Origin: Podospora anserina
Taxonomy: Eukaryota
Direction of reading: 5' to 3'
DNA length: 64,000 nt
NCBI GenBank assembly: GCA_017654855.1
Contig: CM030332.1
Coordinates: forward strand, 2,046,001 to 2,110,000
Positions 9,975 to 64,000 of this stretch are shown here, piece after piece; within the stretch, counting starts at the first letter, position 1; every line of letters starts with the position of its first letter. A program made the position numbers and the translations under genes. The notes under the pieces are model-generated. The model did not search any database, was not told the origin of the DNA, and worked only from the letters and a program-made list of their open reading frames with translations.

Positions 9975-10932
9975 ATGTGGATCTTGCCGTTGGTCGGATA
10001 CCTCGGGTCGATCGTGGGCTTTGGCTTCATGACCCTGGCCATAGGTATGCTCCCTTGCATGCGTTCAAACTATCTTGAGAGGGCCATATGGTCGCTTCAT
10101 ATACCTTTGTCTTTTCTCCATATCCCTCTGAAGATAGTCTGGATGCCGCCCACTTTCTTTCCAATGTCTGTTGGTGACTGTCGAATGCGTCTCGCGATCG
10201 TTCGAATGGCTTTAAAACGGACCCAATACATCTTCACTTTCGCTGACGTGCTTCCAATATAGCCTCCGGCCTCTACTACCTCTCTGAACTCGTCGAAGAG
10301 CACACCGTCATTGCGAAGCGCTTCCTCTCCAAGCTCATTTACTCGATCATGGCCCTCCAGCTTCTCCTCTGCGTCGTCGACCGCTTCCCCTTCTTCCTCA
10401 CCGTTCTCGGCATCTTCTCGCACTTTATCTACTTAGGCAACATGCGGCGCTTTCCCTTTGTGAAACTCACAGACCCCTTGTTCCTCGCCTCGTGTGGTGA
10501 GTTGCCCCCGTCCCAACCCAAGTACCTACCGATAAAGCGTAGACTAACCCCTCTCTCTACCCAACAGCCCTCGTTTTAATCAACCACTACGTCTGGTTCA
10601 AACACTTCTCCCACCACCAAGAACGCGCCTACCAAAACGTCTCCTATTACGACACTCCTGACGACATCCCCACCTTCACCGAGATCGCCTCCTACTTTGG
10701 GCTCTGCGTCTGGCTCGTTCCCTTCGCATTGTTTGTTTCCCTCTCAGCAAGCGACAACGTCCTCCCCACCATGGGAAGCGGGAGCAGCGGTGACTTCTCC
10801 TCGTCGTCTACATCAAACGGCAGCAAAAAGAGAGGACAGGGCATGTTCAAGGCGCTGGTGGATGGAGTCCTAAATACAATGGCCGAGTTGGGCAACATGA
10901 CGGGGTTGAAGAAGCTGGAGGATAGGCTCTAG
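9975..10932 (+). CDS. SVP26: Svp26/Erv26 (TEX261 family) ER-Golgi cargo adaptor; exons 9975-10044, 10263-10496, 10568-10932
   Basis: Spliced product MWILPLVGYLG...LAIASGLYYLSELVEEHTV...LINHYVWF...EIASYFGLCVWLVPFALFVSLSASDNVLP. Introns are in phase. Confidence 0.9.
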
Positions 10933-11565
10933 GAGCGCCTCGCAAGAAACACAGTTGAATCAAGAAAAGGATTGGAGAATGAGCAAAGGCCGAATGAGCC
11001 GGATCTGGGAAACGCCGCGGTGGAGTTTGTGGCTACACGTGACTGGAAGAAACGGCTTCGTGGCAGAATTCAAGGCTTGCGATCGCAGCCGGACGAGCAA
11101 GGGCCTTGGCGCGAGAGCGAGCAAGTTCGCTTGTGGGCGGTGCTGGCCGGGCAAGATTGGGCGTGAGAGCAGGCGACGGGGGTGGGGGGGCTATGGCGAG
11201 CATACGTTTTGGAAGGGGAGGAGACGAGAGTAAGTGGGTTTTTTGTTCCGTGCTCCAACGCTGGAGATAGTATGGAAGTTGTGTTTGGCTAACGGAGGAA
11301 TTTAGGAATGGCCTTGCTATGACCGGTTGTCCCCCGGGATCTAGTTGATCCCATACATCTATAGAGCCAAGCCGAGCTGTTGAAGCCGGGCCTGCTGAAA
11401 GAACTGGGTCTGTCTCGATGTTTGACCGCAATATTGTTCTCCTCTTTGTGATAGTGTTGTTGACGTTGCTTGTTTCACTTGTTCGTCTGCTGTCTGGTAA
11501 TGTATATCCTCCTCCCCCGCTGCCAATTTGCCGTGAGAGCCAGCTCCCTATTGCTATCTATCTAC

Positions 11566-27542: not shown

Positions 27543-29205
27543 ATGAGTGACGACAGAGAGAAAGACTCCATCAGCGAGGCTCAGCGAAGCCACGACGAAG
27601 GAATGGAGTTTCCAGAAGATCCAGACGCCCATCTCACGGCGGCCGAGAAGGCCGAAGTGGTAAGAATTGACTTGAGTCATGTATTTTCAAGTCAATTTAG
27701 CGCTAACAACCATCATACAGGACCGCAAGTTACTCTGGAAGCTAGATAAGAAGCTGATGCCATGGGTAACTCCATTGTCACTCCTTCACTCGGCCTTGAA
27801 CAAGACTAACCGCAATTTCAGCTTTGTTTCCTTTACCTCCTCGCCTTTCTCGACAGAACGAACATTGGCAATGCCAAAATCGCCGGTCTCTCTGAAGACC
27901 TCGGCCTCACCATCTCGTCTTACAATGCCACCCTCACCATCTTTTTTGTGTCGTACGCCGTCTTTGAACCCATCACCAATATCATGCTAAAACGATACCG
28001 GCCCTCGGTCTTCATCCCCATCATCATGTGAGTCCCGGTCAAATCTACTTCTTTGTACCACTCTGACAATCAATATCAGGGTGCTCTGGGGCGCAAGCAT
28101 GCTAGGAATGGGCTTCGTCAAAAACTGGTCCGGCCTCATGTGCGCCCGCTGGTTCCTCGGCCTCACTGAAGCGGGCCTCTTCCCCGGCGTGAATTACTAC
28201 CTCTCGTGCTGGTACAAGCGTTCTGAATTTGGCCTGCGCGCTGCCGTCTTCTTCTCGGCAGCTGCCTTGTCCGGCTCGTTCGGTGGTTTACTCGCTGCTG
28301 CCATCGAAAATATGCACGGCATCGCTGGCCTCCCAGGCTGGGCCTGGATTTTCATTCTGGAGGGCCTCCTTACCATCATCGTCGGTATCATGTCCTTCTG
28401 GCTAGTCTACGACTTTCCCACCGAAGCCAAGTTCTTGTCTGAAGTTGACAGAGCGAGAGTTGTCAGGAGGCTAAAGTTTGACAAGCAGAGCTCGGCGGAG
28501 AATGAAAAGTACACCAACAGTGCGCTGTGGGAGAGTCTGAAGGATTGGAAGATGTGGCTCGGGATGGTGATTTACATGGGGTGTGACATGCCGCTTTACG
28601 CGTTTTCTCTGTTCCTGCCGACGATTATCAGCGATATGGGTTGGAACACGTCTGTCATTCGAGCGCAGCTTATGAGCGTGCCCCCGTATGCAGCAGCTGC
28701 TATCCTGACGGTTGTTATCGGTTTCATCGCCGACAGGACAAGACAGAGAGGCCTCTGCAACATTCTGGTCTCAGTCTTGGGGGTGGCGGGGTTCGCAATG
28801 TTACTGGCGAGCGAGGATGCAGCGGTCAAGTATGTCGGCACGTTTCTCGGAGCGTTGGGGATCTACCCTTGCATATCGAACACTATCTCGTGGATGGCAA
28901 ACAACACCGAGGGGGTTTACAAGAGGGGGGTGGTGATGGGGTTTGTGATTGGGTGGGGAAATCTGAACGGGGTAGTGAGCAGTAATATCTTCTTCAACGG
29001 GCCGAGATTTGTGGAGGGACACGCGGTAATTATTGCGTACATGGCGGTCTTCCTCTTTGGGGGGTCGGTGTTGATGACGGTGCTGTTGAGGAGGGAGAAT
29101 GCGAAACGGTTGAGGGGGAAGAGGGATTATCTGGTGGAGGGCATGAGCGAGAAGGAGATGGAGAGATTAGGAGACAGGAGGCCGGATTTTATTTATACGG
29201 TTTGA
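27543..29205 (+). CDS. MFS transporter, anion:cation symporter (Dal5/Tna1-like); exons ~27543-27659, 27721-27764, 27822-28027, 28080-29205
   Basis: DRKLLWKLD, LAFLDRTNIGNAKI, ARWFLGLTEAGLFPG, WYKRSE, WIFILEG, LMSVPPY and terminal GDRRPDFIYTV. Alternative in-frame ATG at 27534. Confidence 0.92.
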
Positions 29206-57740: not shown

Positions 57741-58983
57741 GGCCTGGAGATATGAGTGAGGAAGTGGGGCTCTCGCAGGATTCGGGAGAGTTCAGGGGTC
57801 ATATATATAAGCTGTCTGCTTCTGACATTCTATTTTAGAGAGGATATCGACTTTTATTTTCTTTGTATTTTGTGCCTTGCATGCGTGCAGGCAATTCTGG
57901 CCTTCTAATCAGGCCAATCCGGTGCTTATTATATGGCCTGCAAGCTTGTAGCATCTTTTTTTTGTCCTGCGCGAAGTGCCGCCTGCGAGCGAGTCACTAT
58001 TACGTAAGTATATTATTCAGGGACCTATTAAAACTATATTTGTTGTATTATAGATAGAGGTCGTGCCTGGGTTAACTAAAGTTTAAGGTTTAAACTGGAC
58101 TTATAAGCCTTAGGTATTTAAGAGAGTACGAAACTATAAATGATAATAAATACCGATAACTTTACTAAACCTTATAAAGTTCGAAAAAAATAATTTCTTT
58201 CCGTTTAATTAAATGAAGATTTTTTATTATCGGCTAAACTCCAAATTTTCCGTTTACGTATAGAGAATTAAACGTATAGTTTAGATAAAATTAGGAAATA
58301 AATTAAAAATATTAATTAACATTCATTTATTAATACACTTTATTTCGGTAATAATTATCAAAGTGTTTTGTTATTTTTAATCAAGAAAAATCTTTTGGTA
58401 TATTGTTTAATAATAATAAATGATTAAAGGGATTTCCGGTTTAATTTAATTTAAGATATTAGAAATTCGAAAGTAAAAAAACGAAATTTTTTTTAATTTG
58501 AATAAAAGTAATTTATATTTATATATTAAAGTTACAAAGAATAATGTTTTTTTTTATTTTTAATAATATATATAAAAAATCTATATTATTAGTATAAATA
58601 TACACAAATGATATTGTTAATAGAAATATAAGAATAATACTTCGTTTATTACTTCGATTAGCTTTTCTAACGATAATTAAGTATATTAAGCTCTTACGAT
58701 TCGTTCCGTAATAAAGACGGCTATCCTAGCAGTTAAATCTCTGTTATTATTATTATTTATTTTATTTTTAATTGCGGACCGTATTTACTTTAAAAACGCT
58801 AGAACTTTTTACCTTCTTTTAAATTAAAATAGTTTAATTATAAGTTGAAATGCTTTTAATACATTAAATAAACCTCGTATTTATTTAAATTTTAATATTT
58901 AAAATTATAGTATACTTCTTATTCGGTATATTAAATATCCTATATTCTTTTAAAAAAAATTTATATTAATTTTAATAACCTAG

Positions 58984-59406
58984 TGTCACAGTTAAGCCAA
59001 ACAGGCAGGACGGACCGTGTGCGGGGCACAAGACGCACAGCCAATCGCTAGCAGGACCAATCAGGACAAGGATACGCGATCATGGACAGCAGACTGGGAA
59101 AACACAGTAATCGCGGCAACACAACCAATAGGGAGCCACGGAGGATCATAGCGATCATTGTGATCATTGGGAACGAGCGGAATGATCACTATGATCAGGG
59201 CTTGGCACGAGGTCTATATATACGGAGGAACTGGCTGGTGTAGATAGACAGTTCCGCAGTATGCAATTCAAGCTTGTATTCACGGCATCTTGTGTTTACA
59301 TTGAGACATCTTGTTGTGCACTGTTTAGCTGCACCGAACCAGGATTATTCAGAAGTTACCTTTAACCAGTATCCCTTTCAGAGGTTCTGGATAGGGGTTC
59401 GTCACA
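58984..59406 (+). mobile_element. Intact 423-bp solo LTR with a 5-bp TSD (possibly the Podospora crapaud family)
   Basis: TG...CA ends (TGTCAC..GTCACA), CCTAG on both sides and an internal TATATATA box. The family name is from memory and unverified. Confidence 0.92.
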
Positions 59407-61974
59407 CCTAGATACTTTTATCTTATAAGAGTTTACTTAAATTATTATTAATTTAAAAGGTCCTTTACGTTTAATTTGCTAACCTTTTATTCTATAGTAC
59501 CTACATATTTTTTAATATAAATTCCTTAATTTAAAAAAAGTCGGTTTTAAAAATAATTTCTAAAAAAATATTTTACGGAATATTTAAAGTGTTTCTAAAT
59601 ATTTATAAAAAATATTAAATTATATAATTTACTTTTTATATTTATAAAATTACATCCTAATATAATTTCGATATAGAAAAACTAAATCAATAAAGATATA
59701 AATTTGAATATTTTTAATATTTTTAATGTTAAAAATGTTAATAAAAGTACTTAATATTTCAAATTTAATATAGATTCTAATCAACGAAATACAAAAAAGT
59801 AGTGTTTATTTAACTTTAAGTGATTATTTTCGGGATTTTAGTATGGTATAGTTTATATTTAAACAAGTCGTAAATTAGATATCATTATTAAGCTTTGATA
59901 TTTTATATTTACTTTAACATATTTAGCTGGGATTTTCTTTTTTAATTATTGGGATAATATAAGTAGTAATAATATTAAAGAATTGTATAGCGGGCTTTCG
60001 GTATTATGGTTCAACCGGGATCTTATATATTGTATAGCCAGTTTATTTAAAAATAAATTTTAGTTTTTTACAATTAATATAAATATTACTATAGAAAAAA
60101 AGTGAAGAGCTTTTAGAAGTAAAAATTATATTTATAAAGTTATTTTAGATATTATGATTACTATAGATACTAGTAGCAAGGGATTTTTCATGGAGTTTAA
60201 TTATCTTAGCTAGTGTGGGTGACCATAGCGTCAGGCATTAAAAGTGGAGGTGGAAGTCCGGTTTATACCGCACAGCGGCATCTTGGGACGAGTGGCCTGT
60301 GCCCCTCCCCCCGCACACTACCCGCCTTGCCGCCGCTAACATCTGGTCAGGGGTAAGCCTGCCTCCCTGCAACCCTGTTGACAAGGACAGAAGCTGGCGG
60401 CGGGGTTGCTGTTGACCCCCCACGAAGAGACATCATAGCAACAGCTGCTCACTGATGTCTTGAGATGGTTGGAGAAGATGATCTTTGACTCTAACACCCA
60501 TGTGCCTAGTCTGTGGCTGATGCCGTGAACTACCTTACCAACTATATGTGACATATGTTTGTGGCCATGTTGGCTCTCAGATAAATCTTAAACAGATCTT
60601 CTGCCATACATCATCGCAGCATGAATCCCCTCTGATGAAGGTCAAAAACCTCCGGATGGAAGCAACAGTGATATGATCTCCTCATCAAAAGCCAGCGCAA
60701 GACTCAACACACTGTAGCCACAACCACTCTTCCCCAGTCATACTTAGGTACCTATCTTGACTAGCCAAAAAGAACATATTCTCCAGTTTTGCCCAACCTG
60801 GACCCTCAAACTCAGGCGACGAGTGTGAGCTTCAACTGGAAATTACACCCCCCTTTCCCCCAAACATTCAGGTAGCTATGCCCAAACACACATCATCCAA
60901 TCATTTTTAATCTTGACTGAGAGTGCTCAGCTTCAGGTGAGCCACCTCACCGAGGTGTTTCCCGCTCACCTTGTATCAACCAACCGACTGCCCATCATTG
61001 GAGGTTGACATGACAATGAGCCGAGAATGTCCAGCACACTCCGTACAAGTCAAATGTGGCACACTAAAAATTGCGCATCATCCGTAAAAGGACCCGACCG
61101 ATTGGATACCAGAAGCTATCTCCTGCGCCATGAACTTGCATGGTCTTGTGTTGGGTTGTGGTTTGGGTGCTCATCATCCATCACTGACATCAACTCATCA
61201 TCAAATCCCTGGTCACAGCAAAAAACAGTACAAAACATACCCTCGTTGCACAATCACATCAGCACAAACAACCATACCTCACATAATAAACACCACCCAT
61301 CTATTCTCACTCTAACATTTATGCACAAAACCAACGGCATCAGAGCACCAAAAATCTTAGCATCTTTTCTTCGCTAACGGATCAAACCCCCAATCCTCAC
61401 CCATCCTAATTCACGCAGCAAAGCCGACACCCCCATAAACCCCCCACAAGAGCCAATCCAGCCTCTCCCATGCTGAGTAAGTAAAAAGGGAAACGTAAAC
61501 GGAAAAATGCCCATTAGCAACTAACCTCCCCATTCCAAATTACGCCATTTTCATTCCTCCCCCATCTAAAGACAAGAAGAAAAAAAAGGAACGGGATAAC
61601 ATAACCTACGCGCTGCTTTGCACGCCTGCCTATAATCCATGTTGCAGGCCCAATCATCTCTCCGCAAGGTCCCCCTCTCTCGACTTCCTGGTCTTCAACA
61701 TCGCTTGCCTAACCCTCTCACCGATGGCCCTAATCTGACCAGCCGCGTCCAAAAGCAATTGGCTCATCTCCTCACCTGCTGCATTAGCACTACTTAAGTT
61801 CTTCTTCATATCCTCCGCCAGGACTGTCCGCTCTAGAGACGTCAACAATCCCGTAGAGGTACTCGGAGACCCTGCATCCTCGGCAGATAGAGCTGCATAG
61901 CAATCGACAGCCCCTAGAAGCTGTTCCCTGATCTTCTCCGTCAGGTCATGGATATTACGACTCCAAGCGTCCTC

Positions 61975-63591
61975 CTAACTCTCAAATTCAAGCATCACCG
62001 TTCCGTTAGCGAGGCCAGCCTCCTTGATAGTTTGATCCAGGAGGTCGATCAGGTCCACACCACTGGGCGATGTCTTGAGCTCAAATGGTACCCCCTCCAT
62101 GCCTGGAATGGGTGGCTCAGCCTTGATCCATTCGTAAATTCTGGACACCGTATCGTCGAGGCGGAACCGCCTGATAGTGCGGCCAATGCTGTGCCTGATT
62201 TGAATGCGCGTTGTGGTCTTGGGATCGGCGGCTGGCTCCGAGTGTGGCTGATTAGATGGAATTCTGTCAAAAGCCGACTCAACCTTTGGAGGTTCTGCTG
62301 GTGGCTCCTCCGCCTTCCCCTTGCCCTTGTCGTCCGCAGCCAGGTTGCCAGTTGAACGGGTTAGCGCATCGGGGTCGTCGATGTTTGGCGGCGAACCACC
62401 CGTGGCAGCCGCCAGACTGTTCTGAAGTGCGAGCTCAAGCTGCTGCTCCTCCGTCAATCGATCGAAGTCGATAACGCGCTCTGGCCTCTTGGCCTTGGTA
62501 ACGGGGTTTTTGCTGTTGGCTGCGAGGCTGTACCTATCAAGGAACTCGACAAGCTGAGCGTGAAACTCCGAGGGCGATGGAAATGGGATGCCGCTCCAGA
62601 CCTTGACCTGTTCACCAGTGCGGGGGTCGACAACCGACACATGAGGATAGTTGTTGGGGTTCTCATGGGTCCGGTTGGGAAAGTAGAAGTTGATGTACCG
62701 CTCGGCAGAAGGATCCAACTTGTCGTACTGCAGGAAAATGAAGTTCTCCTTGATGAGGGAGACAATGGCTTGGTCCTTCCACACATCGCGGTTGAGCATC
62801 TGGCATTGAAAGTCTGAGGAGTCTTGCAGGTTGACCAACAGCCACTTCTTCTCCTCCTTGCCTTCGTCGCGGGCCTCCTCCCAAGAGAAGTCGGAAATGA
62901 TGTCGTATGGTGGCCTGAAGAGCTCAGCCAGGCGATCTGCCCTACTAACCGCAGCACCGGCTGGTCTAGAGGCTGCTGCCGGAGCACCCGCCGACCAAGC
63001 TGATGGTTGTGCGAACGGGTTGTTGGCTCCAGCACGCCTACGGGCTGCAGCGGCAGCTTGTCCGTGTTCCCTTCTAGCACGAATCTGAGCAAGTACCGAC
63101 TCATGATCGTCGTCGTCAAAACCGCCACCAGGGGCCACGAGCACCTCAGTTGTACGTGCCATGGGAGCCCTAACGCCATCGTCGTCGAGGCCTGCGCCGC
63201 CACCCCCAGCCCCAGACGCTGAAGGATTGTAGAACTGCTCTTGCAACTCCCTAGCCAAGGCAGCATCTTCGTCTTCTTGAGCCGCACGGGCAATGCCGGC
63301 AACATCGTCGGTATCGGAGTCGAAACCCGGGTCCTGCATGTCGTCGTCGCTATCGTCAATATGGATGACGCCTTGGGCATCTTCTCTGCCTTGGGAAGGA
63401 CGGGGACGGTTCGAAGCTGTGGTCAACGCAGGGGTTTGCAAACTTTGCTCGATATTTCTCTGAAGGTCGAGGTCTGAATACCACATGCTGATGGCCTGGG
63501 TGGAATCGCCGCACATGTCGATCATACGTTTGGCCACGGCGTGAGACGTTGCCGTGACCGTCATGAATTCTTGGATCTGCTCCTCGTCCAT
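61975..63591 (-). CDS. UBX5: UBX-domain Cdc48/p97 adaptor (UBA-UAS-UIM-UBX; Ubx5/UBXN7 type)
   Basis: N-terminal UBA-like region, LAELFRPPYD, KWLLVNLQD..FQCQMLNRDVW (UAS), TEEQQLELALQNSL (UIM) and TTRIQIR..TIKEAGLANG (UBX). Confidence 0.92.
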   Translation of the reverse strand: MDEEQIQEFMTVTATSHAVAKRMIDMCGDSTQAISMWYSDLDLQRNIEQSLQTPALTTASNRPRPSQGREDAQGVIHIDDSDDDMQDPGFDSDTDDVAGIARAAQEDEDAALARELQEQFYNPSASGAGGGGAGLDDDGVRAPMARTTEVLVAPGGGFDDDDHESVLAQIRARREHGQAAAAARRRAGANNPFAQPSAWSAGAPAAASRPAGAAVSRADRLAELFRPPYDIISDFSWEEARDEGKEEKKWLLVNLQDSSDFQCQMLNRDVWKDQAIVSLIKENFIFLQYDKLDPSAERYINFYFPNRTHENPNNYPHVSVVDPRTGEQVKVWSGIPFPSPSEFHAQLVEFLDRYSLAANSKNPVTKAKRPERVIDFDRLTEEQQLELALQNSLAAATGGSPPNIDDPDALTRSTGNLAADDKGKGKAEEPPAEPPKVESAFDRIPSNQPHSEPAADPKTTTRIQIRHSIGRTIRRFRLDDTVSRIYEWIKAEPPIPGMEGVPFELKTSPSGVDLIDLLDQTIKEAGLANGTVMLEFES

Positions 63592-64000
63592 GGTTGCTGA
63601 TGTCTAGCTGAGTCAAGCTAAGTTAAGTGATAAGAGCTGTCGTATGTCAAGATATGCGGGAAGTAGTATGCCCTGTGATGTCCGGCTGGAAGAGAAGAGT
63701 CGAAGGGAGTCAGTCGGTCGAAAGGTTTGTGGTAAAAGCCCACAGAGCTCGGAAGGAAATCTTGAGCGCACGCTGCGAGGAAGCAAGCGGCGGGAAGGGA
63801 ACGGTTGATCCCAAAAGTCGGTCGCAGTGGCTCTCCGGAGGAAGGTCTTGGGGAAAAGTCGGGCGGAGGAGAGAGTCCAGTGTCGATCGGTTTGCTCAAT
63901 CGCTCTCGTGGGTTGGTCGAGAGTGTGTCGGAGCAGGAAGAGTTGGGCTGCAGCTGCAGAAGGAAAAAAGGTTTTCGGCACGAGGCGTCGTAGCTCGGGG

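Follow-up and report, generated by a model that had tools for sequence, protein, structure and literature searches.

A long, coding-like open frame behind the UAG stop codon of a UBX5-type Cdc48 adaptor gene in Podospora anserina, a candidate for stop-loss A-to-I editing

The DNA considered here is a window of 64,000 nucleotides (nt) from Podospora anserina (GenBank assembly GCA_017654855.1, contig CM030332.1, positions 2,046,001 to 2,110,000 of the forward strand), and all positions given below are counted from its first letter. Near the right end of the window, on the minus strand, lies an unspliced coding sequence (CDS, 61978-63591) that begins with the ATG at 63591, runs for 538 codons and closes with TTT GAG AGT TAG. 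Behind the TAG (61975-61977) the same frame stays open for 106 sense codons (61657-61974) until a TGA at 61654-61656, with more in-frame stops 8 and 16 codons further on. An earlier note, made from the letters alone, had described this stretch as a hidden C-terminal extension of a UBX5 protein that might be opened in the sexual stage by adenosine-to-inosine (A-to-I) editing of the stop codon, with the A at 61976 as the candidate site. The open frame is as it was described there, and our translation is identical to the earlier one, letter for letter. The same is true of the statement that no other gene overlaps the extension, as neither an entry in the protein databases nor an open reading frame (ORF) on the opposite strand explains it.

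The host gene encodes a UBA-UAS-UBX adaptor of Cdc48/p97, of the type called Ubx5, Ubx2 or UBXD7, and the identity first assigned to it therefore stands. Pfam profiles match the 538-amino-acid (aa) protein with UBA_4 at residues 3-40 (4.3e-05), Thioredoxin_7/UAS at residues 236-323 (3.2e-18) and a C-terminal UBX domain at residues 458-535 (3.5e-07; profile positions 4-81 of 82). Because the UBX match continues to profile position 81 of 82, the TAG is the natural end of a Ubx5/UBXD7-type adaptor. The closest solved structure is the UAS domain of human UBXD7 (2dlx, E 4.4e-27), and named homologues agree with the assignment. Among the best 120 of 1438 homologues at E <= 1e-20, the top cluster is 99% identical and likewise 538 aa long, with members named in Podospora comata, P. 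pseudopauciseta, P. pseudocomata and P. bellae-mahoneyi; the next are from Cercophora samala (86%), Triangularia setosa (81%), T. verruculosa (78%) and Apiosordaria backusii (77%). By these names the window belongs to the P. anserina species complex (Sordariales).

Evidence at the level of RNA comes from assembled contigs of four of the 24 listed runs (X1, X11, X15 and X16), whose RNA nature is a guess and whose developmental stages are unrecorded. The runs behave as transcriptomes, because 59608-61215 is uncovered save for a small, low-depth X11 contig at 60519-60766. In each of the four a single unspliced contig lies over the UBX5-type gene, reaching from 61300 to beyond 64000 in X1, from 61295 to beyond 64000 in X11, from 61447 to beyond 64000 in X15 and from 61300 to 63602 in X16, and across 61447-64000 the contigs of all four runs contain neither a splice joint nor a differing letter. 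Since these contigs end at 61295-61300 in three runs and at 61447 in one, past the TGA at 61654, the extension is part of the mRNA and lies in the 3' untranslated region (UTR) of the main form, and the transcript ends about 355 nt past the TGA. Polyadenylation upstream of 61654, which the earlier note had named as an outcome that would speak against its proposal, is thus not what the main form shows, its contigs reaching 61295-61447. The X11 contig carries sequencing adapter as a loose end at 61295, and the minus strand has AUAAAU at 61322-61317, which we take to be a poly(A)-signal-like hexamer. The remainder of the 3' UTR (61295-61653, minus strand), in which the contigs end, is T-rich, has no codon periodicity and contains stops in all frames.

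Two further features of the contigs concern the flanks of the gene. On the upstream side, those of three runs continue from the gene past 64000 without a break for at least 261 more letters; the X16 contig ends at 63602, 11 nt upstream of the ATG, and a separate X16 contig covers 63790-64000. The coverage of 63602-64000 and beyond reflects a long 5' leader or, alternatively, a neighbouring transcript that abuts the gene. In the distal 3' UTR, the contigs of all three covering runs carry C for T at 61366 and T for G at 61426 (plus strand). On the mRNA the change at 61366 would read as A>G; it follows an A at -1, is present at full depth and travels with the G>T change. These two differences are likely a strain polymorphism.

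The statistical character of the extension resembles that of coding sequence rather than of UTR, as its appearance had suggested. Its codon-position periodicity (chi-squared 25.4) is reached by 0.4% of 503 simulated open frames, and the value for the remaining 3' UTR is 4.7. Along the locus, chi-squared is 14-68 in the CDS windows and 27.7 and 25.4 in the windows of the extension, followed by 9.6; in 51 windows from 61724 down to 56107 it is 1.5-11.6, the signal falling to background just past the TGA. Inside long ORFs the windows have a median of 22.6. Taken separately, the two halves of the extension remain periodic (13.5 and 15.7), and therefore an internal ATG at codon 56 does not account for the signal. 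The extension scores 0.03 per codon in a codon log-likelihood trained on nine long ORFs (4526 codons), against -0.088 +/- 0.06 for open simulated sequences, 2% of which reach the observed value; this lies within the low end of the range of the UBX5 CDS windows (-0.036 to 0.289). In base composition the first and second codon positions are similar to those of the CDS. The proportion of G at the first codon position is 0.41 in the extension and 0.39 in the CDS, and that of T is 0.13 and 0.14. The other two frames across the same 106 codons contain 8 stops each. When the 18 large ORFs of the window are followed past their ends, the next in-frame open stretch measures 0-57 codons in 16 of them, 104 in one and 106 behind UBX5, and the stretch of 104 codons is probably the following exon of its gene. 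A gene on the plus strand was also considered as the source of the periodicity and was rejected: the plus-strand ORFs at this place are at most 79 aa long, lie in other frames and score -0.23 to -0.40 per codon.

Window-wide, 7 of the 284 windows that have no ORF of at least 130 codons reach a chi-squared of 25.4; every one of them falls in 10442-10972 or 27614-27984. At these two places, where values are 27-44, short positive-scoring ORFs lie over or beside the signal, and the two are probably short exons of neighbouring genes.

A natural negative control was supplied by the one metagenome scan, which returned distant orthologues only (44-60% identity). One of these, L001 (50% identity), has 161 open codons behind its TGA (L001:4148-4633), with a chi-squared of 8.2 and background values right after the stop. 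This tail illustrates cleanly how a long frame behind a stop codon can arise by chance.

The helical character that had been attributed to the extension is upheld at the level of prediction. From its single sequence, AlphaFold2 predicts a helical hairpin with helices at 3-34 and 46-105, a predicted local distance difference test (pLDDT) score of 83.9 and a predicted template modelling (pTM) score of 0.61. The chance tail of L001, the sole control and one of unmatched composition, receives a pLDDT of 32.5 and a pTM of 0.21. Helix-prone sequences often score well in structure prediction. A Foldseek search of the PDB with the predicted hairpin gave 0 of 477 matches at E <= 0.001 and generic antiparallel hairpins only. 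These include the ING4 dimerisation domain, ESCRT-III CHMP1B, prefoldin and designed proteins, with TM-scores of 0.5-0.64 over 70-105 columns and identities to the extension of 6-18%, a likeness of shape only and not of kinship. A search of the ESM Atlas with the extension returned unnamed bacterial helical clusters only (0.89-0.90), and Pfam assigns it to no family at E <= 1.

Two database matches to the extension call for separate comment. The entry P0003 (78 aa, 66% identity) has Q at the position of the stop and was considered as a relative with a sense codon there; it was rejected as an artefact. Worked out by hand, it is the minus strand of window positions 61744-61995 with every C replaced by T and the TAG read as Q, and it ends where a CAA becomes TAA. 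It appears to derive from C-to-T-converted DNA that was assembled and had its genes called under an alternative code, and entries of this kind can pass for diverged homologues with a sense codon at the stop. The second, the HMMER match P0004, is a repeat protein irrelevant to the extension.

The immediate context of the stop codon in the mRNA is G-U-U-A-G-G-A-G. Fungal A-to-I editing has been reported to prefer U at -1 (in >70% of sites), A or G at +1 and +3, and hairpin loops (PMC11156358). The earlier note held that U-U-A-G-G-A fits this preference fully; the match is real, but as an argument it is weak, since -1 and +1 are fixed in any UAG and only +3 is free. Of the 6 large ORFs in the window that end in TAG, 2 have a purine at +3. 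When 41 or 61 nt are folded, a weak hairpin (-5.4 kcal/mol) forms with the A at 61976 as the first base of its 5-nt loop; in a 101-nt fold this A lies inside a large open loop.

Precedent for such editing in related fungi is good. A-to-I mRNA editing is described as a common feature of Sordariomycetes (PMC11087585), with stop-loss UAG>UGG editing in 403 genes of F. graminearum (PMC13123824) and 47 stop-loss sites in protoperithecia of Sordaria macrospora (PMC5381528). A preprint on P. anserina cites editing and reports ADAT genes up-regulated in perithecia, and shows no editing sites. The main texts of PMC13123824, PMC5381528 and PMC6794485 contain no occurrence of 'UBX'; their supplementary gene lists lie outside this check and may name an orthologue.

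Elsewhere in the region, a segment of about 200 nt at 59196-59412 is matched at 90-95% by many short RNA-like contigs with unrelated flanks and depths to 659, and looks like a dispersed expressed repeat. Rfam gave 0 matches in 58000-64000, this segment included.

Taken together, we believe that the extension is selected coding sequence and not plain UTR, and we would give this reading a probability of roughly 0.6. As for how ribosomes might enter it, sexual-stage A-to-I editing of UAG to UIG, giving a 645-aa isoform, seems to us the most likely route, at somewhat less than even odds. Under this proposal, vegetative mRNA would be translated only as far as the UAG, yielding the canonical Cdc48 adaptor of 538 aa. 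In the sexual stage the A of this codon would be converted to I by the ADAT-type editing complex of Sordariomycetes (Tad2-Tad3-Ame1); ribosomes would then decode UIG as Trp and continue to the TGA at 61654. The product would be a 645-aa isoform in which the predicted helical hairpin is joined directly to the UBX domain. A peptide across the edited stop in sexual tissue would read ...LEFESWEDAWSR, and the tryptic peptide crossing the stop would be ...EAGLANGTVMLEFESWEDAWSR. The tail could be a dimerising or partner-binding module, or a stability tag as in other stop-loss tails.

A considerable number of results weigh against this reading. Openness by itself is weak evidence: when 400,000 sequences per model were simulated from the local composition with first-order Markov chains, 0.22-0.30% had no stop within 106 codons, and a fungal genome of about 10^4 genes (an assumed number) would be predicted to hold tens of chance cases. 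The codon adaptation index of the extension is 0.699, against a null of 0.685 +/- 0.03 (33% of the null at or above), and lies at about the 5th percentile (0.693) of 182 real-gene windows. Third-position C is 0.15 as compared with 0.35 in the CDS, and the extension retains the G-rich, C-poor skew of the UTR. Its ESM Atlas recognition score, 1934, is under the 2300 reached by most known families. Word-index protein searches with the extension alone (26 candidates) and with residues 530-645 of the read-through product (656 candidates) gave none at E <= 0.01, and an exhaustive HMMER search of 1.84 billion representatives gave three matches and no homologue beyond near-identical ORFs, the other two matches being the artefact and the repeat protein described above. 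One of the near-identical ORFs, P0002, is a 51-aa frame from Met56 of the extension in a near relative and differs by 2 replacements; P0132, from the same cluster, matches the window exactly. Within the species complex the 538-aa CDS has, by eye, few residue differences (for example, 4 in P. comata), and 2 replacements in 51 codons beside few in 538 hints at weak constraint on the tail, in numbers too small for a test. All 127 UBX5-type proteins compared end 1-12 residues after an EF/EY/EW motif, and in a longer orthologue (P0109, 688 aa) the added length is N-terminal, not C-terminal. Because all 127 end at the same place, the stop is old and conserved in position. The distant metagenome orthologues L001-L004 stop with TGA, TAG, TGA and TGA, and the tails behind these stops, of 161, 19, 18 and 18 codons, are unrelated. 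With respect to editing itself, the A at 61976 is kept in the contig consensus of all four runs, a point that carries little force; contigs hide minor variants and the stages are unrecorded, and therefore this consensus neither shows nor excludes editing. The site is permissive for A-to-I editing and not distinctive, and the hairpin around it has a z of +0.33, with 120 of 200 shuffles folding at least as well. Our literature search found no paper showing mRNA editing in Podospora itself. Finally, the published stop-loss tails are described as mostly short, coil-rich and destabilising, whereas the tail described here is long and is predicted to form a helical hairpin (PMC13123824, PMC13684032).

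Given these findings, it is appropriate to ask whether the open frame is an accident of a purine-rich 3' UTR that serves no purpose, any editing of the UAG being noise. A probability of openness near 0.25% per gene still predicts many cases per genome, and the longer, plainly non-coding tail of L001 provides one. The random level of codon adaptation, the failure of both kinds of search to find a homologue, the two replacements in the near relative and the low recognition score all fit this explanation as well. What an accident does not readily produce is periodicity and a codon score at coding level that stop at the TGA; openness and periodicity would jointly occur about 1e-5 times per gene under the simulated null, and the confident fold prediction, albeit judged against one control of unmatched composition, points the same way. 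We therefore consider a chance frame unlikely, while granting it real weight. A related proposal is that the extension, whether an exon or small gene since lost or a fragment inserted here, was coding until recently and is now in decay as UTR, in frame by chance. Such a relic would be expected to combine periodicity with an absence of codon adaptation and to show replacements that look fast in a near relative, as is seen here. It would also need to lie in frame (1 in 3) and to have stayed free of stops, it should have left a similar protein somewhere among the 1.84 billion representatives searched with HMMER, where none was found, and it sits poorly with a stop whose age is attested by orthologues from other genera of the family (86-77% identity) that end at the same place. 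We judge a relic to be improbable. Since the tail has no homologue beyond near-identical ORFs and the outgroup tails are unrelated, the extension, if coding, is young and lineage-restricted, and this is probably what it is.

If the extension is coding, ribosomes could also reach it without editing. A weak candidate intron of 66 nt (61914-61979, minus strand; GTTAGG ... CTGAC ... TAG|G) would, if removed in a minor or stage-specific isoform, drop the TAG and keep the frame, joining ...LEFE to the last 85 codons. Its consensus-like branch CTGAC 28 nt from the 3' end, its TAG|G acceptor and a length that is a multiple of 3 lend it some plausibility, and it would explain the coding character with no recourse to editing. 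The usual fungal donor is GTRAGT, from which GTTAGG deviates at +3 and +6. Moreover, a permissive pattern scan yields 4 in-frame candidates, so that a chance candidate among them is likely; the 21 codons at the head of the extension, intronic under this model, are open as well; and no such joint is present in the contigs of the four runs. Facultative splicing accordingly stands at long odds in our estimation. Programmed ribosomal readthrough of an unedited UAG was the alternative already offered in the earlier note. Readthrough tails are known in fungi, and the part of the suggestion that survives is that the frame is open and coding-like. Known leaky stop contexts include C at +4 and UGA-CUA, and a G after the stop favours termination; here a G directly follows the UAG, and these leaky contexts are absent. 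The tail ends in ...DLAER, and thus lacks a C-terminal signal of the peroxisomal type. We find readthrough very improbable.

Returning to the editing of a selected extension, a more ambitious version of this idea would be that a hairpin domain was born de novo from the 3' UTR in the Podospora lineage, its frame being selected and the domain added only in fruiting bodies through editing. We regard this as doubtful, yet deserving of attention for what it would imply. If it were true, editing would act as a gate through which a new domain is tried in one life stage while the vegetative protein is left untouched. Even under the simpler proposal, a core adaptor of the ubiquitin/Cdc48 system would gain a folded module through editing in a single life stage. 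The adaptive value of fungal stop-loss editing is in open dispute, the alternative being that it is noise (PMC13123824, PMC13684035, PMC13684032). A tail with its own signature of coding selection would make a case for function that needs no editing-level statistics, which is where the dispute is stuck. The sequence-only periodicity test, with an orthologue's chance tail as negative control, could also be used to rank stop-loss candidates genome-wide. If the site proves never to be edited, the extension would be no more than a chance ORF, and would caution against reading much into long frames behind stop codons.

It is useful to compare this locus with the systems it most resembles. The protein shares with the Ubx5 (yeast), Ubx2 (S. 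pombe naming) and UBXD7-UBXN7 (human) family the UBA domain, the thioredoxin-like UAS domain and the C-terminal UBX domain. Unlike the extended frame of the window, the 127 family members have nothing beyond 12 residues behind the EF/EY/EW motif. Premature-stop correction of functional pseudogenes, the restorative editing of the PUK1-like kind, likewise converts UAG to UGG ahead of downstream coding-like sequence, but the stop there is premature, whereas the stop in the window marks where the protein ended ancestrally. The conserved position of the stop in 127 of 127 proteins and the unrelated tails at all four distant loci exclude the restorative kind here. The closest parallel is stop-loss editing in Sordariomycetes by Tad2-Tad3-Ame1, as in FgDBF2 of Fusarium graminearum and in white collar 1. 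Common to those cases and the present locus are the UAG, the U at -1, the purines at +1 and +3 and an in-frame extension inside the 3' UTR, and the host of the present locus belongs to Sordariales. A>G is seen in RNA there, whereas the contig consensus here, which is blind to partial editing, has A at 61976. In Sordaria macrospora, 15 stop-loss transcripts are proven by peptides, and among them is white collar 1 with a tail of 131 aa, a precedent for tails of more than 100 aa (PMC6794485). The UBX5 extension would thus be an editing case of a known kind, made unusual by the length of its tail, by its predicted fold and by the protein that hosts it.

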